DNA from: Jimgerdemannia flammicorona
Lineage: Eukaryota
Assembly: GCA_003990765.1 (NCBI GenBank)
Contig: RBNJ01000228.1
Coordinates: forward strand, 1 to 36,156
Reading direction: 5' to 3'
Length of the DNA stretch: 36,156 bases
The notes below the pieces were generated by a model. That model searched no databases. It was not told the origin of the DNA and saw only the letters and a list, made by a program, of their open reading frames with translations. The stretch's first letter is position 1. Each line of letters starts with the position of its first letter. The position numbers and the translations under genes were made by a program. This document shows positions 6,584 through 36,156 of this stretch, one piece after another.

Positions 6584-7729
6584 GTCATAAATAGTCTTTT
6601 CCAGGAATTCAAGTTACTGAAGTGTAAGAGGGTTGCCTTTTAGGGTAACCGTTATATAGTTTTGGAAGGGTTTTCTGGAAGTTCTGGATATTTTGGAAGA
6701 CTGTTTTCTTATGGTCAAGATCAATTTCATATGGAGTACATTTTTTATACTTATTGATTTCAAAATCAGATTGATGTCTCAACCAAAGTCCTTTTTTGGA
6801 CTAGTTCTAGATGTTCAGGATTTTCCATATTTCAGGAAGTTTAAGAAACTAAGGCCAGCTTAGTTAAATTAGCATATCACTGCAGATAATACTCAATTAG
6901 GAAATTTCGTAATGGGGTTAGAAGTGGGACCTAACAGGGAGCAGATTTACTTAAAAGTGGTTTATGGGTTATTAAATAGGTTTATTCGCTATTCATGATA
7001 TTGCTATACTAGAAGTAGTTGTATAAAGGGATATTGTGGGGAAGTGCTCAGAAGTTATATTTGAATTGTTCAAGTCTGGTCAAGTCTGAGATTCTGAGGT
7101 CTGGGAGAGGGGGTATTTATACTAGTGAGAGGCTATCTGGGCTATACTAGATATGGATATAGCACTAAGTACTTTGCTGAGTCAGAATGCAGTCATGTAG
7201 TATAAGTGTGATCTGACATGTCAAGAGATCGTCTAACTGCTGAGTTAGTTCACAGTCACATCATACAAGGCTAATCTAACTATACTATGACTGCTAGGCT
7301 ATTTATAAGTTTAGACGCTATCTGAGTAGTCTTCAATGATATCATCATTGATAACATCATCCCTGATGAAGTAGTTGTCTAGGAAGAGTGGTTTGCGGAT
7401 TACTTCTCCTTGTTGGCTGAGGTAGTAATACATTGGAACTTCGTCTCTATCTCACAGAATAGCATCATCTGTCTCATATGCTAGATAAGGTGTTGGTGGG
7501 CGAAGAAGGGGTATATTGTCTTTCATCAGATTCACTGTCTGTATACCTTCTATAGGTTACAGCACTATGAGTTGCGGGGTTGTAGTAAGCTGGCAGCTGT
7601 GGTTCATGTTGCTCATACTTAGGTGGTGGAGTTGTTGGTTCGATTTTAAGGATTGTCTGAAGGTACAGGTTGTGTTCTCTGGTCTCTTCATTGTAGTTGA
7701 AGTAATCAGGGGTTAGTGCTCCAAATGAG

Positions 7730-8020
7730 TCAATTCGAATCAAATCTAGATTCAATTTGTCACATAATAGTTTGATCTGAATCTCAAATTCGAAGCCATC
7801 TGAATCAACTCAGATTAATCTGAATCACCCCATCCAAATCACCCTATCTGAATCACCCATCCGAACCACCCCAATCCGAATCACTCAATCCGAATCACTC
7901 AATCTGAATCACTCAATTCGAATCCTCCAATTCGAATCCTCCAATTCGAATCCTCCAATTCGAATCCTTCAATCCGAATCCTCATCCAAATTCTTCAACT
8001 GAATCCTCTAATCCAAATCC
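7730..8020 (+). repeat. Left subterminal short-repeat array of the hAT element (~14-bp units such as CGAATCCTCCAATT / CGAATCACTCAATC)
   Basis: Tandem GAATC-containing units directly visible; typical hAT transposase-binding region. Confidence 0.85.
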
Positions 8021-8199
8021 TCTATATGACTCATATGTCGGATGTGTCTACAATACAATACACACACATACACAATACATATACATACATACACATATAC
8101 ATACACATGCAAACACACAAATATATATGTCGACAGATCAGTCTTCAATAGTTCACAGTACCGATGATGCTTTAAGTCAAACATCTCTGATAGTTCTAC

Positions 8200-10724
8200 A
8201 CCTTTCACACAATTCTTGCTCCAAAATCTGGCAACATTGTGCTAAGATAGGAGATGATGTTGTTTGTAATTATTATAGGTAAAAAATTAAGACACACCTA
8301 TTGACACTTTTTGTTTGTTTTGACATACACATGATATTGTTTCATCTACTACTAGTCAGAAGTTCAAAATACTTGTGGATATGACTTCGAACATGAATCG
8401 ATATATAAAAGACAAGTACTCTGACAAAATCAAAAAGAATATGAAGACAAATAAAATCGACATCCAAGCTGTGGTGGGTACATTTATCTGATTGCCCAAC
8501 CATTTCTGTACCAACAATGCCATTTAATCAAAATATTTAGTCATACTCTTTGGCAGAATTTCAAAATTGGCTCATTCGCTGGATTGTGTACACAGACCAG
8601 CCATTCACAACCATCAAGAGTGATCAATTACATAGCATCTTTGGCCTCCTCAAGTATGATTTATATTTGCCAAGTACTGATACTATTCGCAAAGATGTCC
8701 TGGAGGCCTATAGGAAGAAGCATGACAATCTCCACCAGACACTTCAGGTAAAATAAGAGCAGCATTATGACCTTTGTAAGCTGAATTATATAAGAGCTCA
8801 CCAATTTAACCTCATATTCAATAAGTAGAATTTGGCAGGCAAAATTTTGTTTACAATCGACACATAGACATCCCCCAATGCAATTTCGTTTCTGGGCATT
8901 ACTGGTCATTAGATTGACCTCGATTGGTAGCTTAAATCTCTCACCCTTAACTTTGTCAAACTTGCTGGCCCTCATTCTGGAGACAACATCATAGATACTT
9001 TTATTAGTTGTATCTGAGAGCTTGGGATCACCACCAAGGTAAAAAAGAGGGGCTTGCCATTAGGTCAGCATTTTGAGGGAGGTCCTAAACCAAACCAGAT
9101 TTTATTGGTTATTTATTTTCACATAAATTTGCCAACCGAATATTTCAAGTACAGATTTTGGCCATTACAACAGACAATGCCACAAATAACTCAACATTTT
9201 TCAAAGTTTTAGTGGTCAGCCTCAAACAGGAAAACATGGCCTTCAGTGCAGAAAGCTGCTGTGTGCGATGCCAGGCCCATGTACTGAACCTCGCTGTTCA
9301 GGACTATCTTATGCACATAGACAAAACATCTGAGAGAAGAGGGGCCCTGAGTATAATTTTCAAGCTGCACAACCTGGTTGTATCAGTCTGATCATCCCCA
9401 CAATGACGAGACAAATTCGCTGCACAGTATAGAGCAATCAGTTTAGCCCTGAAAGAGCTTATATTGGATGTCTATATGTATTGGAACTTAACATTTGTAA
9501 TGATCCAGCATGTGCTGGAGTTTGTTGTGATATATATCCTTTTTTTCTTCAGTCAGCTGAAGCAACTTGTTTCAGATGATTGAAGATTTATTTAAAAAAA
9601 AAAACAAAAAACAAAAAAAGCCAATAGATTCAACAGTGGCTACTGATAAGGAAATACAGGCCGAGGCTCTAGGTGAAAGTGAGTGGGACGTACTTAGGAA
9701 TATTATCAGAGTTTTGGAAGTAAGTGGTGACTGCTCTGGCTCTACACTCATTTTGTCTGCCTCCGCATAATGCAATATCTCACCACATGTAACTGTCAGT
9801 GTTTCGATGATTGTATGAAGGATATAGTCAAACAAATAACTCTGACAATAAGCTTGGCAATACCAGTATACAACCTTCTGATTGACTGGCTAGAGGACAA
9901 GCTTGAGGACAGGCTGGAGGGTTGTGGTGATTTTTGGTTGAGCCCAAATCAGAGAGACACCATGGAGGTTGCTCTTAGCAAGCTCAGAAAGTACTACTCC
10001 CAAACAGATACTGTCATATATTCAATCAGTACAGGTATGTTGATGTCAGCATGTGGTCATTGCCCCTTCCAAAACAGAGAAACCCCCATAAAAACACACT
10101 CTCTCCTCTCCTTCAAACAGTGCTGGACCTACGCTTAAAGCTACAATACCATAAAGATTAGGGCTAGGAGCAGTACTTCATTGAGAGAACCAAGCAGGCC
10201 ATAATCGAAGTGTACCAGAAAAACTATGCACCACCACAAGGTTTCAGCCAAAGTCTGGATGAATATGCTGAGGGATCCCTCCTGTCCTACATTTACTTCA
10301 GCAGAAAGAGGAAGAGGGAGCTGTCAGTGGAAGAGCTGCTGTCAATAGACAAACTTACCATTTACCTTGCCAGCAACTGCATGATCCTACTGGAGGGTGC
10401 AGAGATACTCAACTGGTGGAAGGTGGGTTGTCAGGTAGGTGTTGGGCCAATTTAACCCACCAATCTAACCACCGCTCTAACCACTGCTCTACCCACCACT
10501 CTATCCACTGCTCTACTCACCAGGGTGTGTAGCTACATCAAACAGACTTCTCCAGCCTGTGTGGTATGGCTTGGGACTACTTGGTGATTCCTGCCTCCAG
10601 TGCTCCTATCAAGTGAGTGTTCTTAGGTGGGGTGGACCTCATTGCCCCAAAGAGGTATGTGCTGAATGCTGAGACAATCTGGATGTATATGTATCTGAAG
10701 TCTTGGTGGGGCTTGGGCCACTAA
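8200..10724 (+). pseudogene. hAT transposase pseudogene (intron-containing)
   Basis: BED-finger-like SKIWQHC...VVCNY; WIVYTDQPFTTIKS...LPSTDTIR; ITTDNATNN; VRCQAHVLNLAVQ; decayed LILDV..WN; C-terminal dimerization region LNWWK...DYLVIPASSAPIK*VF...LKSW; internal stops. Start approximate. Confidence 0.92.
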
Positions 10725-10829
10725 AATTTGGTAGGTCCTGGGGGTTCACGGATAAGTTGGTTAGCCTTGTGGAGTATTTAATATCTTTCAAAAATAATAA
10801 AAGGTAAAAAACCCTGAAGACTCAGCCTG

Positions 10830-11500
10830 GAGTTTGCGGCCCAAGTGGGCAGCGGTTGGCAGAGTTGGTGGTGGCGGTAGAGGGAGTACGCAATGTTTGC
10901 GGCCCTCCGCCAGCTGCAAGGGGCAGCCCCAAGCTGTTAGTGCCTGGATTAATGGGCGGGTCAGTGGGCAGGTCAGTGGGTGGGTCGGTGGAGGGAGTGC
11001 ACAAAATTTGCGGCCCTTTGCTAGTAGCAAGGGGCAGCCCCAAGCCACAAGTGTCCTGGTCAGGGGGATTGGCAGAGGGAGCATGCAAAACTTGCAGCTC
11101 TCTGTCAGTAGCAAGGGGCAGCCCCAAGCTATCAGCACTCAGGTCAGTGGGTGGGGTCGGTCGGCAGGGTTGGTGGGCACAGGGTCAGTAGAGAGAGTGT
11201 GCAAAATTTACGGCCCTCTGCCAGTAGCAAGGGGCAGCCCCAAGCCGCAAGTATCTGGGATGGGTGGAGCAGGTGGAGGGAGCATACAAAATTTGTAGCC
11301 CTCCACCAGCAGCGAGGGGTAGCCCCAAGCTGTCAGCACCTGGGTCAGGGGCAGGTGCGGGTTGGCAAGAAAGTGTGCAAAATTTGCGGTCCTCCACCGG
11401 TAGCAAGGGGCAGCCCCAAGCTGCAAGTGTCCAGGACGGGTAGGGCAGGTAGAGGGAGCATGCAAAATTTGCGGCCCTCTACCAGCGGCATAGGGGCAGC
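10830..11500. repeat. GC-rich tandem array, ~7 copies of a ~45-bp core (GCAAAATTTGCGGCCCTCYRCCAGYAGCAAGGGGCAGCCCCAAGC) with alternating spacer types
   Basis: Cores near 10889, 11000, 11084, 11201, 11286, 11377 and 11462; the overlapping six-frame ORFs here are repeat artefacts. Confidence 0.9.
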
Positions 11501-11516
11501 TAAGGAGTCTGGGGCA

Positions 11517-11596
11517 GAGAGTGCTTCTGGTGGCCGGAGGGTGCTTCTGGCAGCTGGAGAGTGCTTCTAGTGGTCGGAGGGCGTTTCTGGTGGTCA
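11517..11596. repeat. 20-bp tandem repeat x4 (GAGRGTGCTTCTGGTGGYCG)
   Basis: Directly visible with period 20. Confidence 0.85.
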
Positions 11597-11773
11597 AGGT
11601 CTGCCACAGATTTAGGCCCTATCGCTGGTTCGAGTTTGGGTCCCATGGGTACCCTGGCCCTATGCCACAGTACCGCACTGGCAGCACCGCAGAGTAGGGC
11701 CAAGGGGCCGGTAGGGCCCTACATAACAGCTAAGCTAGTGCTACAGAAGAGGCACCTGGCCCAACCCCCTACA

Positions 11774-11866
11774 TAAGACTGCCCAATCTGTACAAAATGA
11801 CTGCCTAACTCTCATGAAAGACTGCCTAACCCTCACGAAAGATTGCCTAACCCTTACAAAAACTGC
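11774..11866. repeat. ~21-22-bp tandem repeat x4-5 (AAGACTGCCTAACCCTCACGA-like) just downstream of the cargo gene stop
   Basis: Directly visible. Confidence 0.75.
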
Positions 11867-11880
11867 TCCACCCGCTGGTC

Positions 11881-13833
11881 CTAGGCCTTGATGAGTCTAT
11901 CATCTATTGTAAGTGCAACGACTGTTGTATTCAAGCTCTCCTCAAAGGCGACAGTGCTGTAGTGGTCATGTGGTTGGAAGAGGATAGCCGTGTTGGCTGC
12001 AAACGGGACCCCAAAACCATAGGTGAGGTCATACCAGACTCTCCCACTATCCTCCCAGATTGGGCCCTTCCTTTCTGGGATGTAAAACATTACTGGAGTA
12101 ATATTGTTATCTGTGTGTGTGGGCAGAGAAAGGTTGTGTCTGATGTATCCTGATGTGACATGAGTATACAGTTGGGTGAACCCTTGGTCCAGGACCTCAT
12201 ACTGCCAGACTATACTGGTGGATGCCTGCCCTTGGTCCAGCCCCAGGAGCCCTGGCTTGGAAACCTGCCAAAATGGACAGCAACTAGTCAGTCCTTTTTG
12301 CATGCGGGGGGGCAGAAACCCCCCGGGCTGCAGAAACCCCCCGGGCTGCAGTATCCCAAAAAAGCGGAGCTCCTTACCTCATACGGTATGCTAAATTGCA
12401 CCAAGAATATACATACAGCCGTGCCGAGATCACCACTAAGCTGGCCTGCCATATGCTCTATCAATCTGCTCAAAGAACCCCAGATCATAGCCACCATCGC
12501 TGCATAGGCCGTGTCATGCTTGCATGCAGTTTGCTCTTTGACGGCACTTCTAAAGTTCCAGTAGGGGTACAGAATCTTGTGCATCCCTGGATTTGTATCA
12601 AAAAGAGTATGTCGGTGAAGAGTGTGATTTATCTGGGGAGTAAAAAAAAAGGGAGATGAGTACAGGGGATTTCGGAACTCCGGAACCCACCTTTCGCCAG
12701 TGTTGCAGTATACCCAATTCCCATCCAAACCCCCCCTCCTTGCTTTTTTCACCCCCTCTTTCCTATCACCCAGTATTTGACACAATCCTCATAAATCTTG
12801 TTGATATGGCAGTGAAGCTTGTTGCTGTAGAGGTTCCTTATTACCATTGCAACCACTTCTCCATGTTTGTTAATAAAGATATGGTTCTCTTCATCATTAA
12901 TTACTCCTGCTGACCAATGGACCCCTTGGTCGAGAACGATTGGCTCTGATTCAAATGTAGACCCCCAAGCCTTAATGACAATGCTGGTACTGCTCATACT
13001 GAACATGCTCTCGAATTTCTCTATTTGATCAGACACCAGATGTGGTTGAACTCGGGTAACTTTGAACTCTCCTTTCCAATGGAACTGAGCTCTAATCTGA
13101 GGGACCAAGATAAGTGTGCAGATAGGTTGCGTGCAGACAGGTTGCATGTGGGCGAGTTGCATACAGGCGGGTTGCATGTGGGTGTGGGTGTTTTTTAAGG
13201 AGAGACCACATAAAAAATGAAATTAAATAAAACACAAAGATGGGTATTTCAGAAAAGAGTGTGAGTGAGTGAGTGAGTGAGCTACATGCCAACAAGTTGC
13301 ACATCGACAAGTTGCATGAGTTACATAAGATTGCTCATGAAGGCTTATTTCTGTTCCTTTTGAGACCTCCGCCATATAATATATTGACTCAACAGCTCAG
13401 CCACCAAAGGCATACCCTACAACATCTTCCAACCTTTCTTCATCTTGACCAGATGTTGCAAATAAAGTCGGCAGATCTTACTGTAGAGCTGTGGACCCTA
13501 AGAAGAGCACGAGATGAATCAGGTCATGCTGGGGGAAATTTAAACAAGTAAAAAGTAGCGGCAGAAAAGAGCAACCTACATCTACTACTGGCTGCTCCAA
13601 AAAGGCTACTGCATACATAGCTATGAGGTCTGTAAATTCCGAGGTCCAAAGGGCCACCATGAGTTATTGCCAGAATTCACCCTCATCTCCACCATCGCCA
13701 TTACCATTGCCATTGCCACTACTGTCACCCCTTTGGCTCTCGATGAGCAGCTTGTGTGCTGCTCATATGAGAAAGAATCTAATATTGTTAGCAGAGAGTG
13801 TGTTTCCACCTCAAATACTCCCTTTTTTGACAA
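11881..13833 (-). pseudogene. hAT cargo gene: putative TET/JBP-like Fe(II) dioxygenase (spliced, decayed)
   Basis: In-phase intron 12265-12377 (GTAAGG...CAG) joins ...QFSIPYE to VSKPGLLG...; last exon has GYIRHNLSLPTHTDNN (HxD) ... WYDLTYGFGVPFAANTAILFQPHDHYST (double-stranded beta-helix strands, distal H-S-T region); upstream GEVVAMVIRN strand. 5' exons (13325-13833) are decayed and less certain. Confidence 0.6.
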
Positions 13834-14034
13834 TTATTATAGGGTGAAAAATGAGTAGACTGGACCAACATATAAATTAAGGGCTGCTGTTTTGTTTGCT
13901 CATGATGCAGCAGGAAAGAACAAAGAAAAAGAACAAAGAAAAGAGAGGAAACAAAGAAAAGGGTGATGTCACCAAAGTGTGGCAGGAAAAAAAAAACAAG
14001 AGTGAAATGAATAAAAGAAAGAATGATATCACCA

Positions 14035-14185
14035 AAGATTTCAATCTAGATGGATCAATCCGGATAGATCAATCTAGATGGATCATCCAGATGGATCATC
14101 TGGATCAGATTACGAGACCAATCTGAGTTGATTTGAACCCATCACATGATGAATCTGAATTGAATCTCATCTGGATCAACTCCAT
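14035..14185. repeat. Right subterminal repeats of the hAT element (GATGGATCAATCYR-like units)
   Basis: Short GGATC/GAATC-rich repeats adjacent to the right TIR. Confidence 0.75.
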
Positions 14186-15480
14186 TCATTCAGAGCACTA
14201 TTGGGGGTAAATGTAGGTTGGTATTCGTGCCAGTGGTCATTGTCTCAATAAGTCTCATATGTGGTTATGAACTGTTGTAAGTTCATTGGCAAGGTTAGCA
14301 GTGTGATCAGGGTTGGCAGAGATCCTTGGCTGGAGGTCATGTTGGCATCAGAGGGATCATTGTCTTTTGCTTCATCTTCGTTAAAGTGGATTATATCATA
14401 GACGTCCTTCATAGCATAACCAACTTGAGGCATTTGTAGGATATGGTCATCAGAGTGCGAGAAGGTTCTGTCTGTAGTCTTGACATACTCGAGGTACTTA
14501 TAGTTGAGTTCTTGTATTATGTCATCGATTTGGCCATAGGACAGAGTAGCAATCATTTCACTGGTGGTAACTCAGAGGTAGGGAATAAAGGTGCTGTACT
14601 CATAAAAGAGTTCTTGGTGTTTGCAGGTGATGGGCTTCTAGTGTTGAGACATCTGGATAATGTCTGTATCATGGTGGTATTTGACCATATCTTCTAGGAG
14701 GCAGCCAATCTGGTAGTAGCTTGAGATTTGTCCAATCTGGTGGGCCTCATTGAGTATGTTCAGGGCATTCCATCAGGCTTCCATGAAATAGAGGGGTGCC
14801 AGGCTATGGATATTCATGAGAGGCAGAGAGGATGTAGCTCGGTTGATAATGACATTCCAAATATCAGCATGGATGCAGTTGTAGATCTTGGTAGTCATGT
14901 TTGTATATTTGGAAGTTGTGGTTATTGTTTGTTTTGGTTCTGCTTCAATGCATCTCAGTGCTCAGTATATATATATTTGGTCCTGATTGATAAGATTCCA
15001 TTTTGTGTAAATCTTGTATTTCATGACTTCATGTTGACTCAGCTTTGTGCACTGTGACTTCAGTTTAACTCAGCTTTGTGATCTTGCAAGTAATTTCTAG
15101 ATTTGTTCAGAGGTCATATGTGATTTTGGTGGCTTAGAGGTTATGTGCTTATATGAAGACTAGTAAATTTACAACTCCTCAATCTATAGAAAAAATCAAA
15201 GCTTTGTCATTTCCAGTGCTTAAGCCTCTTCTTATAGAATTGAAACACTAAGAGTACCTCTATCACAATATTCACCTCTTTGTCTGGGATGAATTCAAAG
15301 ATATTACTTGTCCAAGACTGACTTATAATAATAATGAATAAAAAAATTCAATTATTGCTTGTTAATGTTGTTAAGTTTAATAAGTCATCTTTCACAAATA
15401 TTACTAGCTTTTCTTACTTTTAAAAATAAAATTATTTATATATTTAACAATAAAAATAAATAATAATAATAAAAAAAACT

Positions 15481-17205: not shown

Positions 17206-21521
<4,316 letters not shown>

Positions 21522-21690: not shown

Positions 21691-23957
21691 ATGCTCATGG
21701 ACCACTCCATTTATACTCGAAAGCGGAATCCTTCACCAAAGCCACCATCCCCACCCCCACCCCCATCTCCCCCTCCCCAGCAATCTACCCCCTTGTCATC
21801 CACCCTCCTCTTCTGCTTCCTCGTCTCCTTTCGCCTCGTGAATGCCCTGATCCAGAGGACCTACGACAATCCCGACGAATACTGGCAGTCGCTTGAAGTT
21901 GCCCACAATCTGGTTTTTGGATATCCTTTTGATGAAATTTTACGCGCTGTCGAGCTATGTCATCCACGCTTGTTCTTAACTCTATAATGAATGCTCTGTA
22001 CACACGTATGGGTATCTGACATGGGAATGGCGGTCGCAAATACGAAGCTTCGCCCATCCGCTCATATTCGCCGCTTTGTACAAGCTGCTCGCGGTGATAG
22101 GGCTCGATGAAACCGGATTTTTTGTAAGGTCACTTTAAGCTGGATGATCAAGCACTTGCGATCCGATGGATATGCATCGTGTAATTTGCGCATCTATACT
22201 CGTAGTTCCTAGCACCGCACCTTCTCCAGGCAGTATTTGCTGGCGTGGGCGATTACTACACGTGTCGATTTGCACAGAAAGCCGTTGGCATGTGGATCTC
22301 ACCCACGATCGTAAGTCCTCGCTAACACCATCACCTTGGATTGTTTCATGCAAAAATGTACACATTCAACCCAAAATTACCCTCCCACACTCTCTTAGCT
22401 CTTTAGCACCCTCACTTCCTGGTTCAACCTTCACACCGCTGTCCGGCCTCTCTCCAACTCCCTCGAGACGGTCCTGACCGTCGTCGCACTATTCTATTGG
22501 CCGCTCCCGGGCGTGGTCGCCGAGATCGATCCGCGATGGCAGAGCGGACTGCGCGTTGCGCTCGTGTGGGCAGCTGTATCGTGCGTGATTCGTCCAACTA
22601 ATGGCGTTGTTTGGTTGTTTTTGGGAGTGCATCTCCTGTGGAGATGCCCTAACAGGCAGTTAAGTATAATGATAAACACGGCAATTGTGATGTAGGTATA
22701 TTAGTTTTTCGTTCGTGCAGTATACATTTGTTGGACTTGCCATAGCATAATTTCATTGTCGGTCATTTCACATGCATCAGGGTGCTCGCATTTGGTACCG
22801 TCCTTACCCTCGATACCTATTTGTATACCGGTTCCTTCTCCGCCCTCCTCACCGCCCCTATTATCGCTCCGCTCAATTTCCTCCGCGTCAACGTTTTCAA
22901 CTCCATCTCCCTCTTCTATGGCATCCACTCATGGCATTGGTATCTCACCCAAGGCCTCCCCGTGTTGCTCACGACCTTCCTCCCGTTATTCATCTCAGGA
23001 CTGTGGCTTTCTTACGCAGACCCAGCACTCCGCACACGCACCATCCCTCTCCTCTACCTCCTCGCTTTTGTCATATCCGTTTATAGTCTCCTCCCTCATA
23101 AAGAATTCCGGTTCATCTACCCCTTACTTCCCATCCTCCTCCTCTTTGCCTCCATCGGTTTGCACAATCTTTCCCCGAAACACAAATGGCTCGCAATGGT
23201 CGCGTTGGTGATGACTAACATACCCATGGCGTTGTACACGAGCATTTGGCATCAACGAGGAGTGGTTGATGTCATGCGGTGGGTGAGAGAGCGAGCGCAA
23301 CCGGGGATGGAGGTGGAGTTTCTGATGCCATGTCATTCAACACCGTGGTATTCGGAGGTGCATGATAAAGAAGTCAATCTGGAATTTTTGGGGTGCGAGC
23401 CACCATTAGAGTGAGTAGCCCCCTTTCGCTCGATGTTTCTTAATGATGTATTGTTTTTAAAATATATATATATATTGATGTGCCGACTTCGACTCCCAAC
23501 TCCCTCGAACAGTCCAACCGATCCTACGTACATGGACGAAGCGGACGTTTTTTACGCGAATCCACGGCGCTTCATTCTTGATCGATTCAACAGATCTTCA
23601 GTACAAGGGCGGGCCTGGCCGACACATCTGGTCATGTTTGAGGCGTTATTGAAGATGGAGGATGAGGATGGTTCTTTACGAGGGTTATTTTTGGGAAAGG
23701 GGGAGAATGGGGAAGGAATTTATCGTGAGGTAAGCGGGGATATTTTAGCTTGATTTCAGAGATCGAAATGGGGACATGTTCATGTATTGATTGTCTGACT
23801 ATCGATTCTCTCTGCCCGCGAACCATCGTTTAACGTCAAAACAATTTAGTGCGCACGGTTCTTCAACACACATTTCAATGGTGACTGGCGGCGTAAGGGG
23901 GACGTCATCGTGTTATGTTATAACGATACTGGTGAGGATTTCGTGCATATTGCATGA
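21691..23957 (+). CDS. GPI10: GPI mannosyltransferase 3 (PIG-B/Gpi10, Alg9-like GT22 family), multi-exon
   Basis: FRLVNALIQRTYDNPDEYWQSLEVAHNLVFG/YGYLTWEW; SNSLETVLT; IRPTN; FYGIHSWHWYLTQG; YSLLPHKEFRFIYPLLP; HQRGVVDVM; FLMPCHSTPWYS; DEADVFYANP; FFNTHFNGDWRRKGDV. Start is ATG 21691 or 21697. Confidence 0.96.
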
Positions 23958-24908: not shown

Positions 24909-25453
24909 TGTAAGAGGGTTACTTTTTAGAATAACTGTTATATAGTTCTGGAAGGGTTTTCTAGAAGTTCTAGATATTTGGAAAGACTATTTTCTTAAGG
25001 TCAAGATCAATTTCATATAGAGTATGTCCTCTATACTTATTGATTTCAAGATTGGATTGATGTCTCAACCAAAGTCCTTTTTTGGACTAGTTCTAGATGT
25101 TCAGGATTTTTCGTATTTCAGGAAGTTCAAGAAACTAAGACCAGCTTAGTTGAATTGGCATATTACTGTAGACAATACCCAATTAGGAAATTTCGTGATG
25201 GAGTTAGAAGTGAAACCTAACAGAGAGCAGATTTACTTAAGAGTAGTTTGTGGATTATTAAATAGATTTATTTGCTATTCATGATATTGCTATACTAGAA
25301 GTAGTTATGTAAAGAGATATTGTGAAGAAGTACTCAGAAGTTGTGTTCAGATTATTTAGGTCTGAGATTCTAAGGTCTGGGGGGGGGGGTATTTATACTA
25401 GTGAGGAGCTATCTGGACTATACTGAATATAGATGTAGCACTAAGTATCTTGC
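24909..25453 (-). mobile_element. Older LTR copy (reverse orientation, U5/R end) interrupted by the full-length element; resumes at 36112-36124
   Basis: Starts TGTAAGAGGGTT (reverse complement of the LTR end); sequence ...CTAAGTATCTTGC|TGAGTTAG continues across the insertion. Confidence 0.9.
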
Positions 25454-27526
25454 TGTAAGTGCACAACCTCCAAGCCACCAAAATTACATATCACCCTCTG
25501 AACAAGCCACCGAAATTACACGTGACCTCTGAACAAATCTGGAAATCACCTGCTTGATCATGAAGCTGAGTCAAACCAAAGTCACAGTGCATAAAGCTGA
25601 GTCAATATGAAGTTACAGAACACAAGATTTATACAAACGGAATCTTATCAATCAGGACCAAATGCATATATACTGAGCACCGAGACGCGGCGAATCAGAA
25701 AACCAAAAAAAACAACAACCACAACTTCCAAACACACAAACATGACCACTGAGATCTACAACTGTATCTGCGCTGACATTTGGAATACCATTGTCAACCG
25801 AGCCACACCACCTCTGTCTCTCATGAATATCCATAGCCTGGTACCCCTCTACTTTGTGGAAGCCCGATGGAATGCCCTGAACATACTTAGCGAGACCTAC
25901 TGAATCAGACAAATCTCAAGCTACTACTAGATTGGCCACCTCCTGGAAGACATGGTCGAACACCACCATGATACAGACATCACCCAGATGTCTCAACACC
26001 AGAAGCTCATTGCCCGCAAACATCGAGAACTCTTCTATGAGTACAACACCTTTATTCCCCGCCTCTGAGTCACTACCAGCGAAATGGTTGCTACCCTATC
26101 CTATGGCCAAATCGATGATATGATACAAGAACTCAATCACAAGTACCTCGAGTATGTCGAAACCACAGACAGAACCTTCTCACACCCCAATGATCATATC
26201 CTACAAATGCCCCAAGTTGGATACACCATGAAGGACATCTACAATATAATCCACTTCGATGAAGATGAAGCAGAAGACAATAATCCCTCTGATACTGATA
26301 TGACCTCTAGCCAAGGATCTCTGCCAACCCTGATCACTCCGCTAACCTTCCCGATGAATTTACAATAGTTCATAACTACATACAAGACTTATTGGGATAA
26401 TGACCCCTGGTATGAATACCAACTTGCATTCACCCCCGATTACTTCAACTACAATGAAGAGACTGAAGAACACAACCTGTACCTCCAGACAACCCTCGAG
26501 ATAGAACCAACAACCCCACCACCTAAGTATGAGTGACATGAACCACAGCTGCCAGCTTACTACAACTCTGCGACTCATAGTGCTGTAACCTATAGAAGAT
26601 ATACAGATAGCGAATCCGATGAAAGTGAAGACAATACACCCATCCTTCGCCCACCAACACCTTATCCAGTATACAAAACAGACGATGCTATCCTGTGGGA
26701 TGGAGATGAAGCTCCAATGTATTACTACCTCAGCCAACAAGGAGAAGTAATCCGCGAACCACTCTTCCTAGATGACTACTTCATCAGAGATGATGCAATC
26801 AATGGTGATGTCATTGAAGACTACCCAGATAGTGCCTAAACCTATAAATAGTCTAGCAGTCATAAGTATAGATAGATTAGCCTTGTATGATGTGACTGTG
26901 AACTAACTCAGTAGTCAGACGATCTCTTGACATATCAGATCACACTTGTACGACGTGACTGCATTCGGACTCAGCGAGGCACTTAATGCTATATCCATAT
27001 TCAGTATAGTCCAGATAGCCCCTCACTAGTATAAATACCCCCTCCCCCAGACCTCAGAATCTCAGACTTAAACAGACTTGAACACACAAGAACATTCCTG
27101 AATACTTCCCCACAATACCCCTTTACACAAATACTCCTAGTATAGCAATATCATGAATAGCAAATAAACCTATTCCATAACCCACAAACCACTTTTAAGT
27201 AAATCCACTCTCTGTTAGGTCCTACTCCTAACCCCATCACAAAATTTCCTAATTGGGTATTGTCTGCAGCGATACACCAATTCAACTAAGCTGGTCTTAG
27301 TTTCTTGAACTTTCTGAAATACAGAAAATCCTGAACATCCAGAACTAGTCCGGAAAAGAACTTTGGTTGAGACATCAACCCAATCTTGAAATCAATAAGT
27401 GTAGAGGACGTACTCCATATGAAATTGATCTTGACCATAAGAAAACGGTCTTCCAGAATATCCAGAACTTCCAGAAAACCCTTCCAGAACTACATAACAG
27501 TTACCCTAAAAAGCAACCCTCTTACA
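25454..27526 (+). repeat. 5' LTR (2073 bp)
   Basis: Direct repeat of 34041-36111; TATAAATA 27030-27037; AATAAA 27163-27168. Confidence 0.97.
25742..26839 (+). pseudogene. LTR (U3)-encoded ORF, 365 codons, unknown function (5' LTR copy)
   Basis: ATG MTTEIYN... to ...IEDYPDSA*; single frame with no indels; most stops are sense codons in other copies. Confidence 0.75.
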
Positions 27527-27529
27527 ACT

Positions 27530-27538
27530 TGGTAGCAG
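27530..27538 (+). promoter_or_regulatory. Primer-binding site, initiator tRNA-Met type
   Basis: TGGTAGCAG 3 nt after the 5' LTR, complementary to a ...CUGCUACCA tRNA 3' end. Confidence 0.75.
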
Positions 27539-27559
27539 CAGTTTACAATCCAATTCCAC

Positions 27560-29500
27560 TTCAAGATGCTTCCTCACCCCGCTACAAACCCTTCTGTGAA
27601 TTCCTACAAGTTGGTATAGAGCTCAACCTCTGAACTGGAATTAATCCTGAACCATCTGACAATCTGGAGAGAATTGAACCTGACGTACAAGGACAATTTG
27701 ACCTCCACACCTGCAACAAGTGGGACAAACTTCATTCTAAGAAAGAAGTACTCTGGTTAAACCAGCAAATAGGCGAAACCCTATTCACCGAACTCCTTGC
27801 ACTACACCCAGCAAGTCAAGATGAAGAAGGTCTTATTGAAGTCTTCTTTACCCTTCTCAACAAGAGTTTTGTCAGCTCCACAAATCCAAGCGACCTAGGA
27901 TAACCAGCAGCAGTCTTTCTAGCCTTAGTCCCTCACGAAGCCCAAGCCTCTGTAGCCAAGTGGCTTAACTCTACCAACTTTCACCGCACCAGGACCAAGA
28001 CCGCCTTATACTACCGATTTCAGAACAGCAAGGCCTGCCATATTCTTAAGGAAGAAGTAAGAGAAACTCTTCACCAACTATCTGACCCCGAACCTGAAGC
28101 AGGCCCTACTACAGCCCTACCTGAATCTGAAACCAATACCGAACCTGAACTTGACTTTGAATTAAGTCCATCTGAAATCAGATATACAACTGATTCTGTC
28201 TACTTTGACGCCAAGCAAACCCAATTACACGGGGACCAAACCGAAGAAGAGGAGGAGTATTTCACTGAATTCGATCCCGGATACACCACTGAAGGAGACA
28301 CATGCCCATCAGGACAGAATACACCTACACAGCAACAAACAGTTATCTATCAAGCCCTCACTCCAGACCCACAACTACTACTCCAGCAACTTACACAGAC
28401 CCAAAGAACCCCATCACACTCTGCACCAGTACCTCAAGTAGTACCAGTAACACTACTATCAGCAGTCCAACTACCTCCAGCAATCAACATGGCAAACCAA
28501 TAGATTCTTGATCTCACAGCCCAAGTAGCTATAATAGCAGCAACCATTACTGCCTTAGCCAAACAGACCCGACCTACCAAAAATCTGAGCCTACCTACCT
28601 TCAATAGTACTGCACAAGAAGTCCAAAGCTTCATTAGTGTAGTTGACACTAACTTCGAAGCCAATCAATGGACTAATGAGCGAGTCGCTGACTGTTCTGA
28701 CAAACAATCAAGACCACACTCTGGAACAACTCTTTGCTACCACTACAGCCTATGTCCGCTGAGTTGTTACATTCTTCCAAGGACCTGCTGAAGAATGGTG
28801 GCAAACTCTTCCTAAAAAACCCCTCACATAGGATACCCAACCTGCAGTAGTTGCTCAGAATGCAGCAAATAATGCCCCAGGATATGGAGCCCATTCTGCA
28901 GCCCCTGGACTCAAATAACTCATGATTGCTCAATATCGCAGCGAAACCATGATTGCCAAATCTCGAGTAAAACTCTGCAACCTCAAATTTGATGTATATG
29001 GCAAAGAAGAATTTGAAACCTTTTGTACAAAACTTGAGTCACTCCTGAACACTGTTGACCTAGGATACATCACCAATGATGAAGCATGAAATGGTACAAG
29101 AGCAGACCATTTATTCGATGCCCTGCCTGAATGGCTTACTAGAAAAATCTGAGAACAAGGCCGCCCAGTTGGTTGTGATCACCAACAATAGTGTCTGGCA
29201 AGAATCAAGACCATGATCAAGCAAATCCTAACAGCTGGACCAATTCTGCCCTGAAGACAATTCAACAACAAGGAAAAGACTTGGACCAAGAAAGAAGAAC
29301 CCAAGCATGAAGTATCTCGAGCTCCCTCCACATCCACCTCTTGGACACCCAGAAATCATGAACCCACCCAGCCAAGTACCTTCAAGAAACTTACTGAAGG
29401 CGAAAGAAATAAACTTCAAAGAAGCGGAGCATGCTTCTATTGCCGAAAGACAGGACACATGGCCAGTGCCTGCCCCAACCGAAAACTCCAAACAGCAACA
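27560..29500 (+). pseudogene. gag: Gag with a long N-terminal extension and CCHC zinc knuckle
   Basis: LPTFNS..QEVQSFI and FFQGPAEEWW capsid-like motifs; CFYCRKTGHMASAC at ~29430-29472; frameshift ~28695 and several C>T stops. Confidence 0.85.
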
Positions 29501-29554
29501 TGAGCAACTGTTACCACTCTGCACCATCTCAACAACCTGACCACCAGAATACTA

Positions 29555-29960
29555 GACTTTGTCAAGTTGAGACAAACTGCTAAGGCCCCAACCAAAGAAA
29601 GTCAAAAAGCAGCTGGATATGATCTGTATGCAGCTGAAGAAGCTACAGTTTCCAACCGAGAAGTCAAACAAGTCTATACAGGAATCAGTATCCAAATTCC
29701 TGAAGGACATGTTGGAAGAATATGCTGTCGCAGCAGCCTATCATTGAAAGAACTCTCAGTAGAAGGCAAAGTCATTGACGAGGATTACACAGGCGAAATT
29801 ATTGTCCTCATCCGAAACCATAGTTGGACACCCTTCAAGATCTCTATTGGTTTCTGCATTGCTCAGATCCTATTCAAAAAAATCGAGTCAACCCTGACAG
29901 TCAAGGAAGTCCCTGAACTACTGTCCACCATCTGAGGATCCAAAGGATTTGGCTCATCAA
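29555..29960 (+). pseudogene. dut: dUTPase domain in frame between nucleocapsid and protease
   Basis: All five trimeric dUTPase motifs: AGYDL, RSSL, VIDEDYTGEI, IAQIL and (TGA=R)GSKGFGSS. Confidence 0.95.
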
Positions 29961-30169
29961 ACAAGGCCCCAGCCCAACCTACCATGAGCAAGGAAAAACA
30001 ATTCTACAAGAAGATTGAAGATGGATATGTACCAAGTGGCCAATACCCTCATAGCATTGGAATGTACTCTTCCTGAATGATTGATAATTGCTTCTCTTGT
30101 GTCAGCGAACTGGCTCAAAGAAGAACCAACAGAAGAAAGACTCCTATAACTGAAATCACCAGCATTGGA

Positions 30170-33100
30170 TCAGACAAACTGCTCACTCTTAAGGCTTTTG
30201 TCAACGGAGCACCTGTCAAGATTATGATAGATAGTGGTGCCTCAGGCAACTTCATCAATAAAGAAACAGCCAACAGACTCAAGGTCTTCACCTCTCCAGT
30301 ACAGCAAACTCAAGCAGTTGCTACAGCTGATGGAACCTCACATGTTATTAGCAAAGAAGTCCGCAATCTACCCTTCCGAATTGGCGACTACCAAGTACAT
30401 GTTACCCTCCAAATCGTACCACTTCCTGACAATGAAATCATCCTTGGGACTCTATGGTTAAAACAAAAGAACCCTATGATTGATTGGGTAAACCATTCCC
30501 TGACCATCAAGAAAGGACGCCACAACTTCAAACTATAAGGCGAAAAGGACCCACTCAACCCTAGTGACCCTAGACCAAAGATCATCCACATTAACAAGCT
30601 ACAACTCAAGAAATTGGCCAAGAAATGCCCTCTCTTTGCCATCTCCATCTGTCCATCCAAAGGAGAACCTGAGAACTCTGAAGAAGACTTTTCCAAAGTT
30701 GACAGCCATGTCAGACCACTACTCCAGAAATTCCAAGACATATTCCCAAAGAAGCTTCCGAAAGGCCTACCTCCCAAACGAGCAGTAGACCATGCAATCA
30801 AGACTATCCCAGATGCCAAACCAGCCTTCAAGTCAATCTACTACATGTCTCCAAGAGAATTGATGCACTCAAGAAGGAAATTGACGAACTCCTAGAACAA
30901 GGATTCATCAGACCCAGCATATCACCCTATGGTGTATCAGTCCTCTTTGTTGTCAAGAAAGGAGGAGACCTGCAAATGTGCATTAACTACTGCGATCTCA
31001 ATGAACAGACTATCAAGAACTGTTGCCCACTATCGAGGATTGATGAAATATTTGATAGACTTACCAATTTACAATTCATGAGCTCCTTTGACCTGCGAAA
31101 TGGTTACTGGCAAATTGTCATGAAAGAAGAAGACATCTACAAGACAGCTTTCTGAACTCGCTATGGACATTTTGAGTTCCTGGTTATGCCCTTTGGCTTA
31201 ACTAATGCTCCAGCAACCTTCCAGACACTGATGAATACCATTCTGCATCCATACCTGGACAAATTCGTTGTTATCTACATTGATGACATCCTAGTCTTTA
31301 GCAAAACTCTGGAGGAACATCTTGAACACCTTGAACTAGTACTACTGAAACTCCGAGAAAACTGACTCTTTGCAAAACTCAGTAAGTATGAATTCCTCCT
31401 GAAAGAAATTCAGTTCCTTGGATACATTGTTACTCCAAATGGAATCAAAGTAGACCCCAGCAAAATCTCTGCAATCAAGGATTGGCCCAGACCCAAGAAG
31501 CTGAAAGACCTCCAGTCATTCCTGGGATTAGCAAACTATTACAGGCGATTTGTTACCAACTTTGCTAAAATAGCTACTCCCCTCACCCAAATGACCAAGC
31601 ACAGCAAGAAACAAGAACAACTCTAGACCATGAAACAAGAGAAAGACTTCAACAATCTTGTAAATTGGGGACACAAGCAAGATACCGCCTTTCAAGCACT
31701 GAAAGATGCCCTGATAACTACCCCAGTACTTCAAGCAGCAAACCCTGCCCTACCATATGAAGTCACTACTAATACCTCTGACCTAGCTCTTGGAGCAGTG
31801 CTCATGCAAGAAGGACACTCTGTGGCCTATCACTCCCACAAGTTCAATGATGCCGAAATCAACTACACAACTCACGAGAAGGAAATGCTAGCCATTGTAG
31901 ACACTCTGATCAAATGGCAACCATATCTAGAAGGAGCACACTTCACTATATTGACTGACCATAAGTCATTAGTCAACATCAAGACACAGGCTACCCTTTC
32001 TCAAAAGCAAGCCAGATGGATGAAAGTTCTCACCAATTTTGACTATGAAATCCAGTATCGCCCTGGCAAAGAAAACATTGTTGCCGATGTAATCTCCAGA
32101 CCACCCATTGAAGAAGTCATCCAAACTCTCACTTTGGTTACAAACTCCATCATGGAACAAATTATCACAGTATGTGCTGATGATAAAGAAGCTCAAGCAC
32201 TCCGAGAAATCCTGAACAATGATGATACTGACAAGCATACCTGGTACAATCAATACCAACTCAAGGATAATGCTATCTACTACAAGGACAGACTATATGT
32301 CCCAAACAACCAAGACCTCCGAAGGACTATCCTATTTGAATGTTATGATGCCCCTACAGCTGGACATTTAGGATTTGATAAATATTATGAAGTTATCTCC
32401 TGAAACTTCTATTGGCCCTGCATGGCAGATTAACTCAAAACTTACATTACTTCCTGTGATGCCTGCCAATGAAACAAGTCCTCAACACTAGCAAAACCCG
32501 GCTTACTCCACTCTATTCCAGTACCATCCGCAAATTGGGAACAAATCTCTATGGACTTCATTGTACAACTACCCCAAACCAAGAACAGGAAAGATGCAAT
32601 TGTTGTCTTTGTAGACTATCTCAGCAAACAAGCCCACTTTGTGCCTACTACCACTACTGCAATAGCACCAGACATAGCCACACTTTTGTTTGACAACATC
32701 TTCCACTATCATGGTCTTCCCAAGATCATTGTTAGTGACCGAGATCCGAAATTCACCAGCCACTTTTGGAAAGCCCTCTATGCACACCTTGGAATGAAAC
32801 TTGCACTATCCATGGCCTTTCACCCTGAAACTGATGGCCAAACCGAAAGAATGAACCGAACTCTGGAACAAATGCTAAGGAACTATGTCTCCTACAGACA
32901 AGATGATTGGCATGAACATCTCACCGCAGTCGAGTTTGCCTATAACAATAGCAAGCAAGCCTCTCTTGGAATAACCCCATTCTTCACTAATACTGGACAA
33001 AACCCAAACACCCCTTTGATACTTATCTGAACTACTGATGAACCCTCCACAGTCGAAGCTGTTGAAGAATTCCTACTCCGAATGTGCAATCTAAGCCAGA

Positions 33101-33618
33101 TTGCAATTGAGAATTTATCACAAGCTCAAGAACAACAGTCACAGTATGTTAACCAACACCGCCGAGAAGAAACTTTTGATATTGGAGAAAAAGTCCTACT
33201 AGACATCAGAGGATACCGAGTTGACAACCTCAAGCACAAACTATCTACTAAGCTGAACAGTAAGTTCATTAGACCATTTGAAGTCATTGCACAAGTCTCT
33301 CCAACTGCCTATAAACTGGCGCTACTGGACACCATTAAGATTCACCCAGTCTTTAATGTTCAATGTCTCAAGTGATACAATGAGAATAATGACGAGCTAT
33401 TCTCCAACTGGACCACTAAACCACCTGCACCTATCATCATTAATGACCAAGAAGAGTATAAAGTTGAACAAATCCTCAACAAATGTAGCAACAAGAACCA
33501 TCCCGAGTACCTTATCAAATGGAAAGGTTACCCAATCCACGATGCAACCTGGGAACCCAAGACCAATCTTCAGAATACTACCGATCTAGTTCAGGAATAC
33601 GATTCCTTGAATAACTAG
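30170..33618 (+). pseudogene. pol: Pol: aspartic protease, RT, RNase H, integrase, chromodomain
   Basis: IMIDSGASGNF and [26 protein letters not shown] at 31276; NYTTHEKEMLAIV and TDHKSL; GHLG..CDACQ, SMDFI, VSDRDPKF, QTERMNR; chromodomain EEYKVEQIL...[17 protein letters not shown]; 1-nt frameshift ~30862 and several stops. Confidence 0.97.
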
Positions 33619-34026
33619 AACCAAATACTCTGCACCTACCCGTACACTATATTTTATCCTCCCAAACATTATAATTATTGTGAACCAAACCAAAAACTCA
33701 GCAAAACAAGACAAGAATACTGAATCTCTGGAAAAATAGCAAAACTGAAAGCAAGCCTATTCTCCCTGTACCACTGGTGGGAAACAAGGTGTAGACATTT
33801 AAGAAGATTCCTTAGAGGAAATTCTCCAGCAGTGAATGACGTCAGAATTACTTCTGGCGCACAGTATTAAATACACAACCCTTTAACATGTGAATCCAAT
33901 GCATTAGGCAACTGTACTACGAGCATGCCACTTTCTGAGAAAATGGACCTTACCAGACTTTTGATCTCTCAAATGGTATAACAACACTAGAACAAATTAG
34001 AAGGCCTGACAAGGATGTCGAAAGCT

Positions 34027-34039
34027 AAGAAGGGGAGAG
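34027..34039 (+). promoter_or_regulatory. Polypurine tract
   Basis: AAGAAGGGGAGAG 1 nt before the 3' LTR. Confidence 0.9.
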
Positions 34040-34040
34040 T

Positions 34041-36111
34041 TGTAAGCGCACAACCTCCAAGCCACCGAAATTACACGTCACCCTCTGAACAAGCCACCGA
34101 AATTACACGTGACCTCTGAACAAATCTGGAAATCACCTGCTTGATCACGAAGCTAAGTCAAACCGAAGTCACAGCGCACAAAGCTGAGTTAATACGAAGT
34201 CACAGAACACAAGATTTACACAAACGGAATCTTACCAATCAGGACCAAATGCATATACCGAGCACTGAGATGCATCAAATCAGAAAACCAAAACAAACAA
34301 CAACCACAACTTCCAAACATACAAACATGACCACTGAGATCTACAACCGTATCTGCGCTGACATTTGGAATGCTATTGTCAACCAAGCCACACCACCTCT
34401 GCCCCTCATGAATATCTATAGCCTGGCACCCCTCTACTTCGTGGAAGCCTGATGGAATGCCCTGAACATGCTTAGTGAGGCCTACCGAATCAGACAAATC
34501 TCAAGCTACTACCAGATTGGCTGCCTCCTGGAAGATATGGTTGAACACCACCATGATACAGACATCACCCAGATGTCTCAACACCAGAAGCTCATTGTCT
34601 GCAAACATCGAGAACTCTTCTATGAGTACAACATCTTTATTCCCCACCTCTAAGTCACTACCAGCGAAATGGTTGCTACCCTGTCCTATGGCCAAATCGA
34701 TGACATGATACAAGAACTCAATCACAAGTACCTCAAGTATGTCGAAACCACAGACAGAACCTTCCCACACCCCAATGATCATATCCTACAAATGCCCCAA
34801 GTTAGATATGCCATGAAGGACATCTACGATATAATCCACTTCAATGAAGATGAAGCAGAAGACAATGATCCCTCTGACACCAACATGACCTCTAGCCAAG
34901 GATCCCTGCCAACCCTGATCACTCCGCCAACCTTCCCGATGAATTTACAACAGTTCATAACTACATACGAGACTTATTGGGATAACGACCACTGGCATAA
35001 ATACCAATCTGCATTCACTCCTGATTACTTCAACTACAATGAAGAGACCAGAGAACACAACCTGTACCTCCAGACAACCCTTGAGATAGAACCAACAACC
35101 CCACTACCTGAGTATGAGCGACATGAACTACAGCCGCCAGCTTACTACAACCCCATGACTTATAGTGCTGTAACCTATAGAAGGTACACAGATAGCAAAT
35201 CTGATGAAAGTGAAGACAATACACCCATCCTTCGCCCACCAACACCTTATCCAGCATATGAAACAGACGATGCTATCCTGTGGGACAGAGATGAAGTCCC
35301 AATATATTACTACCTCAGCTAACAAGGAGAAGTAATCCGCGAACCACTCTTCCTAGATGACTACTTCATCAGAGATGATGCAATCGATGGTGATGTCATC
35401 GAAGACTACCCAGATAGTGCCTAAACCTATAAATAGTCTAGCAGTCATAAGTATAGATAGATTAGCCTTGAATGATGTGACTGTGAACTGACTCAGCAGT
35501 CAGACGATCTCTTGACATATCAGATCACACTTGTACGACATGACTGCATTCCGACTCAGTGAGGCACTTAGTGCTATATCCATATTCAGCATAGTCCAGA
35601 TAGCCCCTCACTAGTATAAATACCCCCTCCCCCAGATCTCAGAATCTCAGACTTAAACAGACTCGAATACACAAGAACATTCCTGAATACTTCTCCACAA
35701 TACCCCTTCACACAAATACTCCTAGTATAGCAATATCATGAATAGCAAATAAACCTATTCTATAACCCACAAACCACTCTTAAGTAAATCCGCTCTCTGT
35801 TAGGTCCTACTCCTAACCTCATCACGAAATTTTCTAATTGGGTATTGTCTGCAGTGATACACCAATTCAACTAAGCTGGTCTTAGTTTCTTAAACTTCCT
35901 GAAATATGGAAAATCCTGAACATCCAGAACTAGTCTGGAAAAGGACTTTGGTTGAGATGTCAACCCAATCTTGAAATCAATAAGCATAGAGGACATACTC
36001 CATATGAAATTGATCTTGACCATAAGAAAACAGTCTTCCAGAATATCCAGAACTTCCAGAAAACCCTTCCAGAACTATGTAACAGTTACCCTAAAAAGCA
36101 ACCCTCTTACA
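34041..36111 (+). repeat. 3' LTR (2071 bp)
   Basis: TGTAAGCG...CTCTTACA; TATAAATA 35615-35622; AATAAA 35748-35753. Confidence 0.97.
34327..35424 (+). pseudogene. LTR (U3)-encoded ORF, best-preserved copy (3 internal stops)
   Basis: Track ORFs at 34141, 34468 and 34669 are all one frame; stops at 34450, 34651 and 35320. Confidence 0.8.
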
Positions 36112-36122
36112 CTTGCTGAGTT

Positions 36123-36124
<2 letters not shown>

Positions 36125-36156
<32 letters not shown>
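36125..36156. repeat. Poly(T) run to the window end
   Basis: 32 T residues abruptly replacing the expected LTR sequence. Confidence 0.8.

Follow-up and report, generated by a model that had tools for sequence, protein, structure and literature searches.

A probable accessory gene of 365 codons within the long terminal repeat of a Ty3/gypsy chromovirus

The 36,156-nt stretch of Jimgerdemannia flammicorona contig RBNJ01000228.1 analyzed here (the window) contains six copies, A to F, of a 2.07-kb long terminal repeat (LTR), two of which, E and F, bound a full-length retrotransposon of the Ty3/gypsy chromovirus type. Copies B, C, E, and F share an open reading frame of 365 codons, hereafter the LTR ORF. 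We consider it likely that this frame is one gene lying wholly within the U3 part of the LTR and that it was intact in the ancestor of these copies, was maintained by selection, and has since decayed. The frame was under purifying selection while the family transposed and decayed neutrally after insertion. It is an accessory gene serving the element and not a host gene, and its four copies in the window are dead relics.

The reading frame in four LTR copies

In copy F, the frame extends from 34327 to 35424 on the plus strand, with 365 codons followed by a stop, and is interrupted by three internal stops at codons 42, 109, and 332. Copy E (25742 to 26839, plus strand) has five internal stops, with codon 42 still CGA, and copy B (4799 to 5896, plus strand) has ten and is free of indels. 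From ATG to TAA, the frame is 1098 nt long and gapless in F, E, and B. Copy C is divided by a 6.5-kb insertion into a 5' piece (14200 to 14898, minus strand), which terminates within the first target-duplication copy of the insertion, and a 3' piece (7311 to 7704, minus strand). Once the insertion and one copy of the target duplication are removed, its frame measures 1093 nt with five internal stops, and its sole gap is a 5-bp deletion in the 3' piece, corresponding to 35208 to 35212 of F. An earlier note made from the sequence had described three copies of constant length and a fourth with one 5-bp deletion, which is what we found.

Stops occupy 15 internal codon positions, 14 of which are sense codons in at least one other copy, in agreement with the earlier observation that nearly all of them are. 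Thirteen of these 14 stops are a single transition away from the sense codon; the exception is codon 171 of B, which shares no base with it. Since the whole frame lies inside the LTR, solo LTRs keep it. B and C are such solo LTRs, and each still carries the decayed frame, as had been predicted.

The comparison of reading frames sets this one apart. The four copies have only one internal stop in common, at codon 109, whereas the other two forward frames have 13 and 18 fixed stops and the three reverse frames have 3, 20, and 17. Base composition leads one to expect 17.3 stops in 365 codons, and the Poisson probability of one or fewer is 5.6 × 10^−7. Per copy, forward frames 2 and 3 contain 15 to 19 and 33 to 43 stops, respectively, and the antisense frame in the same register contains 6 to 12, a low number that would be expected opposite a sense ORF with few TTA, CTA, and TCA codons. 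Three-base periodicity is also evident, with G counted 95, 38, and 49 times at codon positions 1, 2, and 3. Where several fixed stops or indels might have spoken for non-coding sequence, we observed one fixed stop, which is a sense codon elsewhere, and no shared frameshifting indel.

Two other delimitations of the gene were considered and rejected. Against a start at either of two in-frame ATGs farther upstream, at 34249 and 34270, stand 2-bp indels at 34252, 34284, and 34320, which break the register in other copies; moreover, E has ACG at the second of these ATGs, and the related database protein P0006, introduced below, begins MTTEIY. A continuation of pol into the ORF is contradicted by six in-frame stops between the chromodomain and the ATG.

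Selection on the frame and decay after insertion

Between subfamilies (F or E versus B or C, and B versus C), the ratio of nonsynonymous to synonymous substitution rates (dN/dS), calculated by the NG86 method, was 0.16 to 0.24 in frame, compared with 0.66 to 1.19 in two off-frame controls for the same comparisons. The possibility raised earlier of a ratio near 1 was thus not borne out. In the E–F pair, which records post-insertion changes only, dN/dS was 0.44 versus 0.43 and 0.88 in the controls and could not be distinguished from them. In a McDonald–Kreitman-like contrast, 12 nonsynonymous and 26 synonymous changes set E and F apart from B and C, whereas 30 and 17, respectively, were private to E or F (Fisher p = 0.0045); the first of these classes, the lineage differences, gave 31 and 7 when read off-frame.

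The distribution of indels follows the boundaries of the frame. Only 1 of 11 indel events among the window LTR copies, the private 5-bp deletion of C, fell within the ORF, which represents 46% of the exposure (p = 0.011), and the nearest flanking indels, at 34320 and 35449, bracket it. We also compared the LTR with contigs from four other sequencing runs, X1, X3, X14, and X17; among the runs, partial matches to the stretch came from soil and root metagenomes and from two organisms. In these contigs, 9 of 11 indel rows lay outside the ORF, and the pair inside it (−1 at 34634 and +1 at 34636) cancels out. Of the 25 best-supported variant sites within the ORF, 16 were at the third codon position and 1 at the second (chi-square p = 0.0012). 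Conservation of the frame while the family spread, together with neutral decay in the inserted copies, points to selection for the element and not for the host.

Position of the ORF within the LTR

The positions of the TATA boxes, poly(A) signal, primer-binding site, polypurine tract, and target duplication suggest that the ORF lies wholly in U3. The ORF ends at 35424 and is followed by two TATAAATA boxes on the plus strand, one at 35428 to 35435, 3 nt after the ORF end, and one at 35615 to 35622, which is the likely promoter of the genomic RNA. The only AATAAA poly(A) signal in the LTR is at 35748 to 35753 (plus strand). The order claimed in the earlier note, with the ORF upstream of both TATA box and poly(A) signal, is therefore correct. 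On the other side, 286 nt of LTR precede the ATG, among them two tandem duplications at 34058 to 34212 (plus strand; 32 nt repeated 2.1 times and 31 nt repeated 2.2 times) that contain ACGTCA and CACGTG motifs and constitute a candidate enhancer or promoter. In E, B, and C, an ATATATATA stretch precedes the ATG by about 75 nt.

The borders of the element are marked by a primer-binding-site-like sequence, TGGTAGCAGCAG, at 27530 to 27541 (plus strand), 3 nt past the 5' LTR, with the same letters following an LTR end in run X3, and by a polypurine tract, AAGAAGGGGAGAG, at 34027 to 34039 (plus strand), directly before the 3' LTR. The target-site duplication CTTGC is present on the plus strand at 25449 to 25453 on the left and at 36112 to 36116 on the right. 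Reverse transcription would copy an ORF placed in U3 to both LTRs, and in the genomic RNA such an ORF would follow pol.

Alternatively, transcription could start near the repeats at 34058 to 34212, which would place the ORF in an R region of about 1.5 kb, as the first cistron and again at the 3' end of the genomic RNA. The duplicated, motif-bearing repeats and the ATATATA stretch upstream of the ATG would suit this layout, as would an ATG with A at −3 and an A/C-rich leader, while the lone AATAAA downstream of the ORF is compatible with either arrangement. However, the two canonical TATAAATA boxes past the ORF are located 313 to 320 and 126 to 133 nt before AATAAA, the usual U3–R spacing, and an upstream cistron of 365 codons would hinder the translation of gag. 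To our knowledge, an R region of 1.5 kb is highly unusual for Ty3/gypsy elements. We regard this layout as improbable and retain the placement of the ORF in U3.

Part-by-part identity among the LTR copies is uniform, at 82 to 96%, and is uninformative on a conserved promoter. Contigs of X14 and X17, which we guessed to be RNA although none of the runs listed is recorded as such, had a word depth of 1075 to 7225 over 35697 to 35903 (R–U5) versus 0 to 70 over U3; because contig depth cannot rank parts of the stretch, these values were not used as evidence, and neither were the bins of zero cover that both runs showed over parts of the ORF. In one contig of X17, an adapter-like string is attached about 6 nt upstream of 35681, which hints at a start about 50 nt past the second TATA box, although we do not count it as evidence.

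Codon 109 and C-to-T decay

Codon 109, a TAA stop in F and a TGA stop in the other three copies, raises the question of whether the frame is one cistron. We favor the reading that the stop is a decayed CGA and that this subfamily had a single cistron of 365 codons. The database protein P0006, which has 128 amino acids and is 88% identical to F, carries arginine at codons 42 and 109 and runs unbroken across codon 109 (...IPRLRATTSEMVATLSY..., ...FIPRLRATTSEMVATLSYGQIDDMI), continuing into MVATLSYGQIDDMI. At 34651, the first base of codon 109, C instead of T accounted for 174.5 of a depth of 292.5 in the X1 contigs (15 contigs), 20.8 of 20.8 in X3 (three contigs), 18.7 of 22.5 in X14 (one contig), and 0 of 2.3 in X17.

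The mutational pattern of the copies is consistent with this origin of the stop. Within the ORF, E and F differ by 78 transitions and one transversion. Since the insertion of the E–F element, C-to-T changes affected 27 CpG sites while 27 were kept; the corresponding numbers of changed and kept sites were 27 and 196 for CpA, 11 and 153 for CpC, and 5 and 261 for CpT. This concentration at CpG makes CGN arginine codons mutation hot spots. Across the four window copies, arginine is retained in 9 of 40 cells at the ten arginine codons of P0006, and positions 10, 66, and 109 have lost it in every copy, always to TGN, CAN, or TAN. Given the CpG decay and the arginine codons lost in all copies, TGA is the expected product of CGA. 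The transition bias of the LTR, with its CpG-focused C-to-T changes, is the signature of repeat decay driven by cytosine methylation.

The competing layout consists of two cistrons, namely an ORF of 108 codons for which codon 109 is a true stop and a second ORF of 251 codons beginning at MVATLSY. The stop in four of four window copies, which had prompted the earlier caveat, stands, and about 40% of the X1 depth at 34651 still has T. In addition, the divergent relative P0003 begins exactly at the methionine of codon 115. The division into two ORFs nevertheless lost ground, since P0006 has Arg109 and reads on in frame and C predominates at 34651 in X1 and X14 and is the sole base there in X3. 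The dominance of C-to-T change at CpG (27 changed and 27 kept) and the loss of 3 of 10 arginine codons in all copies likewise argue against it, as do the six codons between the stop and Met115, which are conserved like the remainder. Two cistrons are accordingly quite unlikely, and we continue with a single gene of 365 codons.

Relatives of the LTR ORF and properties of its product

Searches of 5.8 billion clustered and 1.84 billion representative proteins yielded two true relatives, P0003 and P0006. P0003 is an uninterrupted protein of 247 amino acids with 66% identity and 82% positives over codons 115 to 364; it starts at the methionine of codon 115, ends at the same stop position, and is aligned with in-frame gaps only. 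The earlier note had named an absence of homologues in related elements as grounds for doubt; P0003 is an intact, divergent homologue. No relative of the ORF was found elsewhere in the window, nor any similarity to the element's own gag-pol. A scan of metagenomes with alignment-derived patterns returned 590 pattern stretches, none of which was confirmed, and a 24-nt R-region pattern gave 0 matches in the metagenome scan.

A third candidate, P0007, was not accepted because its E value of 8.7 × 10^−9 is spread over six repeats of a stretch of about 38 residues. In this protein of 436 amino acids, the repeated ..LSFDKIADFIEKLN.GY.. resembles TLSYGQIDDMIQELNHKY of the LTR protein (codons 111 to 148), a likeness that may be due to chance or to a shared short helix motif.

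The predicted protein of about 43 kDa (42.9 kDa) has a pI of 4.4 and is composed of 8.8% Tyr, 8.8% Asp, 8.6% Thr, and 7.7% Pro, with five Gly residues. No hydrophobic segment was detected, the maximum Kyte–Doolittle score over 19 residues being 1.05. In a low-confidence AlphaFold model (predicted local distance difference test score (pLDDT) of 53), the N-terminal 128 residues are all helical. Blocks conserved between subfamilies are dense toward the C terminus and include HILQMPQV, LQQFITTYETYW, FTPDYFNYNE, EHNLYLQTT, PPTPYPAY, and EPLF.D.YFIRDD, followed by the final YPDS; this density argues for binding motifs or for a fold hidden from shallow alignments. The PPAY motif of copy F, highlighted in the earlier note as part of an acidic C terminus rich in proline and tyrosine, is not conserved, its place being taken by LPAY in E and B and by PLAY in P0003. 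Atlas gave no usable feature hit for P0003, with structure matches at a TM of 0.30 or below, and its hits for P0006 (0.90 to 0.93) were without a common family. The LTR protein is therefore an orphan, acidic and Tyr/Pro-rich, and belongs to no known family.

An orphan without a retroelement-like domain that is dissimilar to the element's gag-pol and to the rest of the window could also be a passenger, a piece of some host or foreign gene that was taken up into the LTR and does not serve the element. However, no relative outside an LTR was found among the 1.84 billion representative proteins, and the frame is kept in a subfamily that is only 66% identical. Moreover, a useless passenger would not show purifying selection between transposing lineages while the inserted copies decay, and we therefore consider a passenger very unlikely and an element-serving gene the better account. 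The idea of a chance open frame in a non-coding, A/C-rich, T-poor LTR that was never translated is largely refuted and scarcely credible: the strand is indeed rich in A and C (A 33%, C 29%, G 17%, and T 22%), the antisense frame in the same register is also poor in stops, and neither family nor fold was found, but the 17.3 stops still expected from this composition, the 13 and 18 fixed stops of the other forward frames, the dN/dS values, the contrast in nonsynonymous and synonymous changes, the indel avoidance bounded by the ORF, the periodicity, and the intact relative at 66% identity with in-frame gaps only all speak against it.

Several points weigh against the interpretation of the LTR ORF as a single selected gene in U3. 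All window copies are broken, and both relatives are partial, one an N-terminal and the other a C-terminal fragment, so that no single intact copy of 365 codons was seen. As P0003 starts at codon 115, it does not bear on the N-terminal 108 codons of the divergent subfamily, which may have a two-cistron layout. The NG86 estimates ignore the extreme transition bias, for which the off-frames are the only control, and four copies allow only an approximate separation of lineage from post-insertion differences. The label U3 derives from motif positions, and expression and function are likewise predicted. With regard to the protein, P0001 and P0002 matched 0 Pfam families at E ≤ 1, the best match in a sequence search of the PDB had an E value of 0.26, and no confident fold was obtained (AlphaFold pLDDT 34 when the whole protein was modeled and 53 for its N-terminal 128 residues; Atlas model 0.39).

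Possible expression and role

As a 3'-terminal cistron located after pol in the genomic RNA, the LTR ORF would need its own promoter or a spliced mRNA to be translated. A promoter internal to the LTR, formed by the ACGTCA/CACGTG repeats and the ATATATA about 75 nt before the ATG and sharing the LTR poly(A) signal, is a serious candidate that falls just short of probable. A spliced subgenomic mRNA, by analogy with retroviral sag or nef, is a more tentative possibility. Because U3 is copied to both ends, the gene would be present twice per provirus and once per solo LTR.

On balance, we expect that the product would act in trans, as a regulator or adaptor, in the expression of its own element or in the formation of its particles. 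The protein would act via the conserved aromatic–acidic linear motifs in its largely unstructured C-terminal two-thirds, which would be preceded by a helical N-terminal part of about 110 residues. A further idea, which we regard as rather doubtful, is that the LTR is a self-contained cassette in which the acidic, aromatic C terminus transactivates the same U3 repeats, giving positive feedback similar to that of foamy-virus Tas or human T-lymphotropic virus Tax. If so, every LTR, including solo LTRs, could express the protein, and this capacity would spread with each solo LTR.

Comparison with known systems

The closest layout known to us is sag of mouse mammary tumor virus (MMTV), a whole gene of a few hundred codons inside U3 that is doubled per provirus and 3'-terminal in the genomic RNA. 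The LTR ORF, here predicted from sequence, would resemble it as a complete gene inside U3. However, the two have no sequence relationship, since Pfam, which includes a Sag model, gave 0 families at E ≤ 1. While MMTV Sag is a membrane glycoprotein, the LTR protein has no hydrophobic segment (maximum 19-residue score 1.05), and the carrier is an env-less chromovirus retrotransposon and not a vertebrate retrovirus. The nef gene of human and simian immunodeficiency viruses and the foamy-virus bel/bet frames are accessory frames of the 3' genome end that extend into the 3' LTR, overlap U3 in part, and are expressed from spliced mRNAs. The LTR ORF shares with them its location at the 3' end of the genome, in the 3' LTR, but unlike them it lies inside the LTR from start to stop, and no homology to them was found.

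Annotation pipelines mask retrotransposon LTRs, which are regarded as regulatory modules without coding function. Additional ORFs (aORFs) are known in plant LTR retrotransposons, and some of them lie between the 5' LTR and gag. In the parts of the review PMC7264820 that were available, aORFs are described as extra, mostly orphan frames beyond gag-pol, proposed to be accessory-like, and are placed between pol and the 3' LTR, often in antisense. The LTR ORF is likewise an orphan extra frame, but it is in sense orientation and inside the LTR, in contrast to the aORFs as those parts describe them. The phrases "in the LTR", "within the LTR", and "LTR region" occur 0 times in PMC7264820. From fungi, the accessible portions of PMC2864245 describe basidiomycete chromodomain Gypsy elements with a dUTPase at the amino-terminal end of Pol, also noted for Tuber, and a figure legend there names an "add. 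ORF" of unknown function. The E–F carrier, with its dUTPase and chromodomain, resembles these fungal chromoviruses in build as described in those portions, which is the only respect in which they are likened.

In the literature searched, which left subscription journals and figures outside, no LTR-resident ORF was found in an LTR retrotransposon; this is not proof of absence from print. Among the matches listed, and in the passages these contained, MMTV papers used the term "LTR ORF" for a gene inside the repeat, and transposon papers used it for gag-pol ORFs or within "non-LTR ORF2". We rate as new an orphan accessory gene that would lie wholly in the LTR of an env-less chromovirus, and as already known the sag-type layout in retroviruses.

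A selected gene in U3 would mean that retrovirus-like accessory functions are possible without env. Such a gene would be doubled at each insertion and would outlast the recombination that produces solo LTRs, and the thousands of LTR copies per genome could represent a hidden reservoir of one orphan protein. The LTR ORF is thus a concrete candidate for how a chromovirus of a soil eukaryote may regulate itself or counter host silencing.

The carrier element and the surrounding window

The E–F element is a Ty3/gypsy chromovirus bearing a dUTPase. Its internal region of about 6.5 kb (27527 to 34040, plus strand) encodes dUTPase, protease, reverse transcriptase, RNase H, integrase, SH3, and chromodomain. 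The dUTPase domain (29504 to 29932, plus strand; Pfam E = 1.2 × 10^−29) precedes the protease (2.6 × 10^−14), which is followed in order on the plus strand by RVT_1 (0.0036, a weak match), RT_RNaseH (3.2 × 10^−31), rve (2.7 × 10^−8), SH3_Tf2-1 (1.5 × 10^−15), and, C-terminally, Chromo (1.4 × 10^−17). Every piece of pol is interrupted by stops, and no further copy of the internal region was found in the window.

Copy E (25454 to 27526, plus strand) is the 5' LTR and copy F (34041 to 36111, plus strand) the 3' LTR of this element; they are 93% identical, both have TGTAAG...CTTACA termini, and the element is flanked by CTTGC/CTTGC. The element is nested in copy D, an older LTR on the minus strand (24909 to 25453, with its continuation at 36112 to 36156), as is evident from the 5-bp CTTGC duplication and from the sequence past F, which resumes the reverse complement of D. 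A run of 32 T at 36125 to 36156, within this continuation, closes the window. At the opposite end, copy A (1 to 624) is the 3' part of an LTR truncated by the window edge. The solo LTR B (4509 to 6583, plus strand) has the 5-bp target duplication GTCAC/GTCAT, and the solo LTR C (6623 to 15153, minus strand) has CTTCA/CTTCA.

The GC-richer island between C and D, with about 50% GC, holds host-like genes. Besides an ORF of 397 amino acids (18889 to 20082, minus strand) for which Pfam gave no family, it contains a protein kinase (17856 to 18644, minus strand; E = 2.1 × 10^−30) and an Alg9-like mannosyltransferase (22782 to 23411, plus strand; E = 9 × 10^−42).

The 6.5-kb insertion that splits copy C (7720 to 14203) is a terminal inverted repeat (TIR) element with short inverted termini, TAGTGCTC...GAGCACTA, and a target duplication of 8 to 9 bp whose CpG has decayed. 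In two of its ORFs, a search for a transposase domain was negative. Its terminus is identical to a loose end at 35805 in run X17, which indicates that this TIR family struck the LTR more than once. Two other loose ends, at 34962 in X14 and at 35515 in X17, are mutual reverse complements except for a CA/TG change, and this match points to a second element with inverted termini that inserted in LTR copies of another organism.

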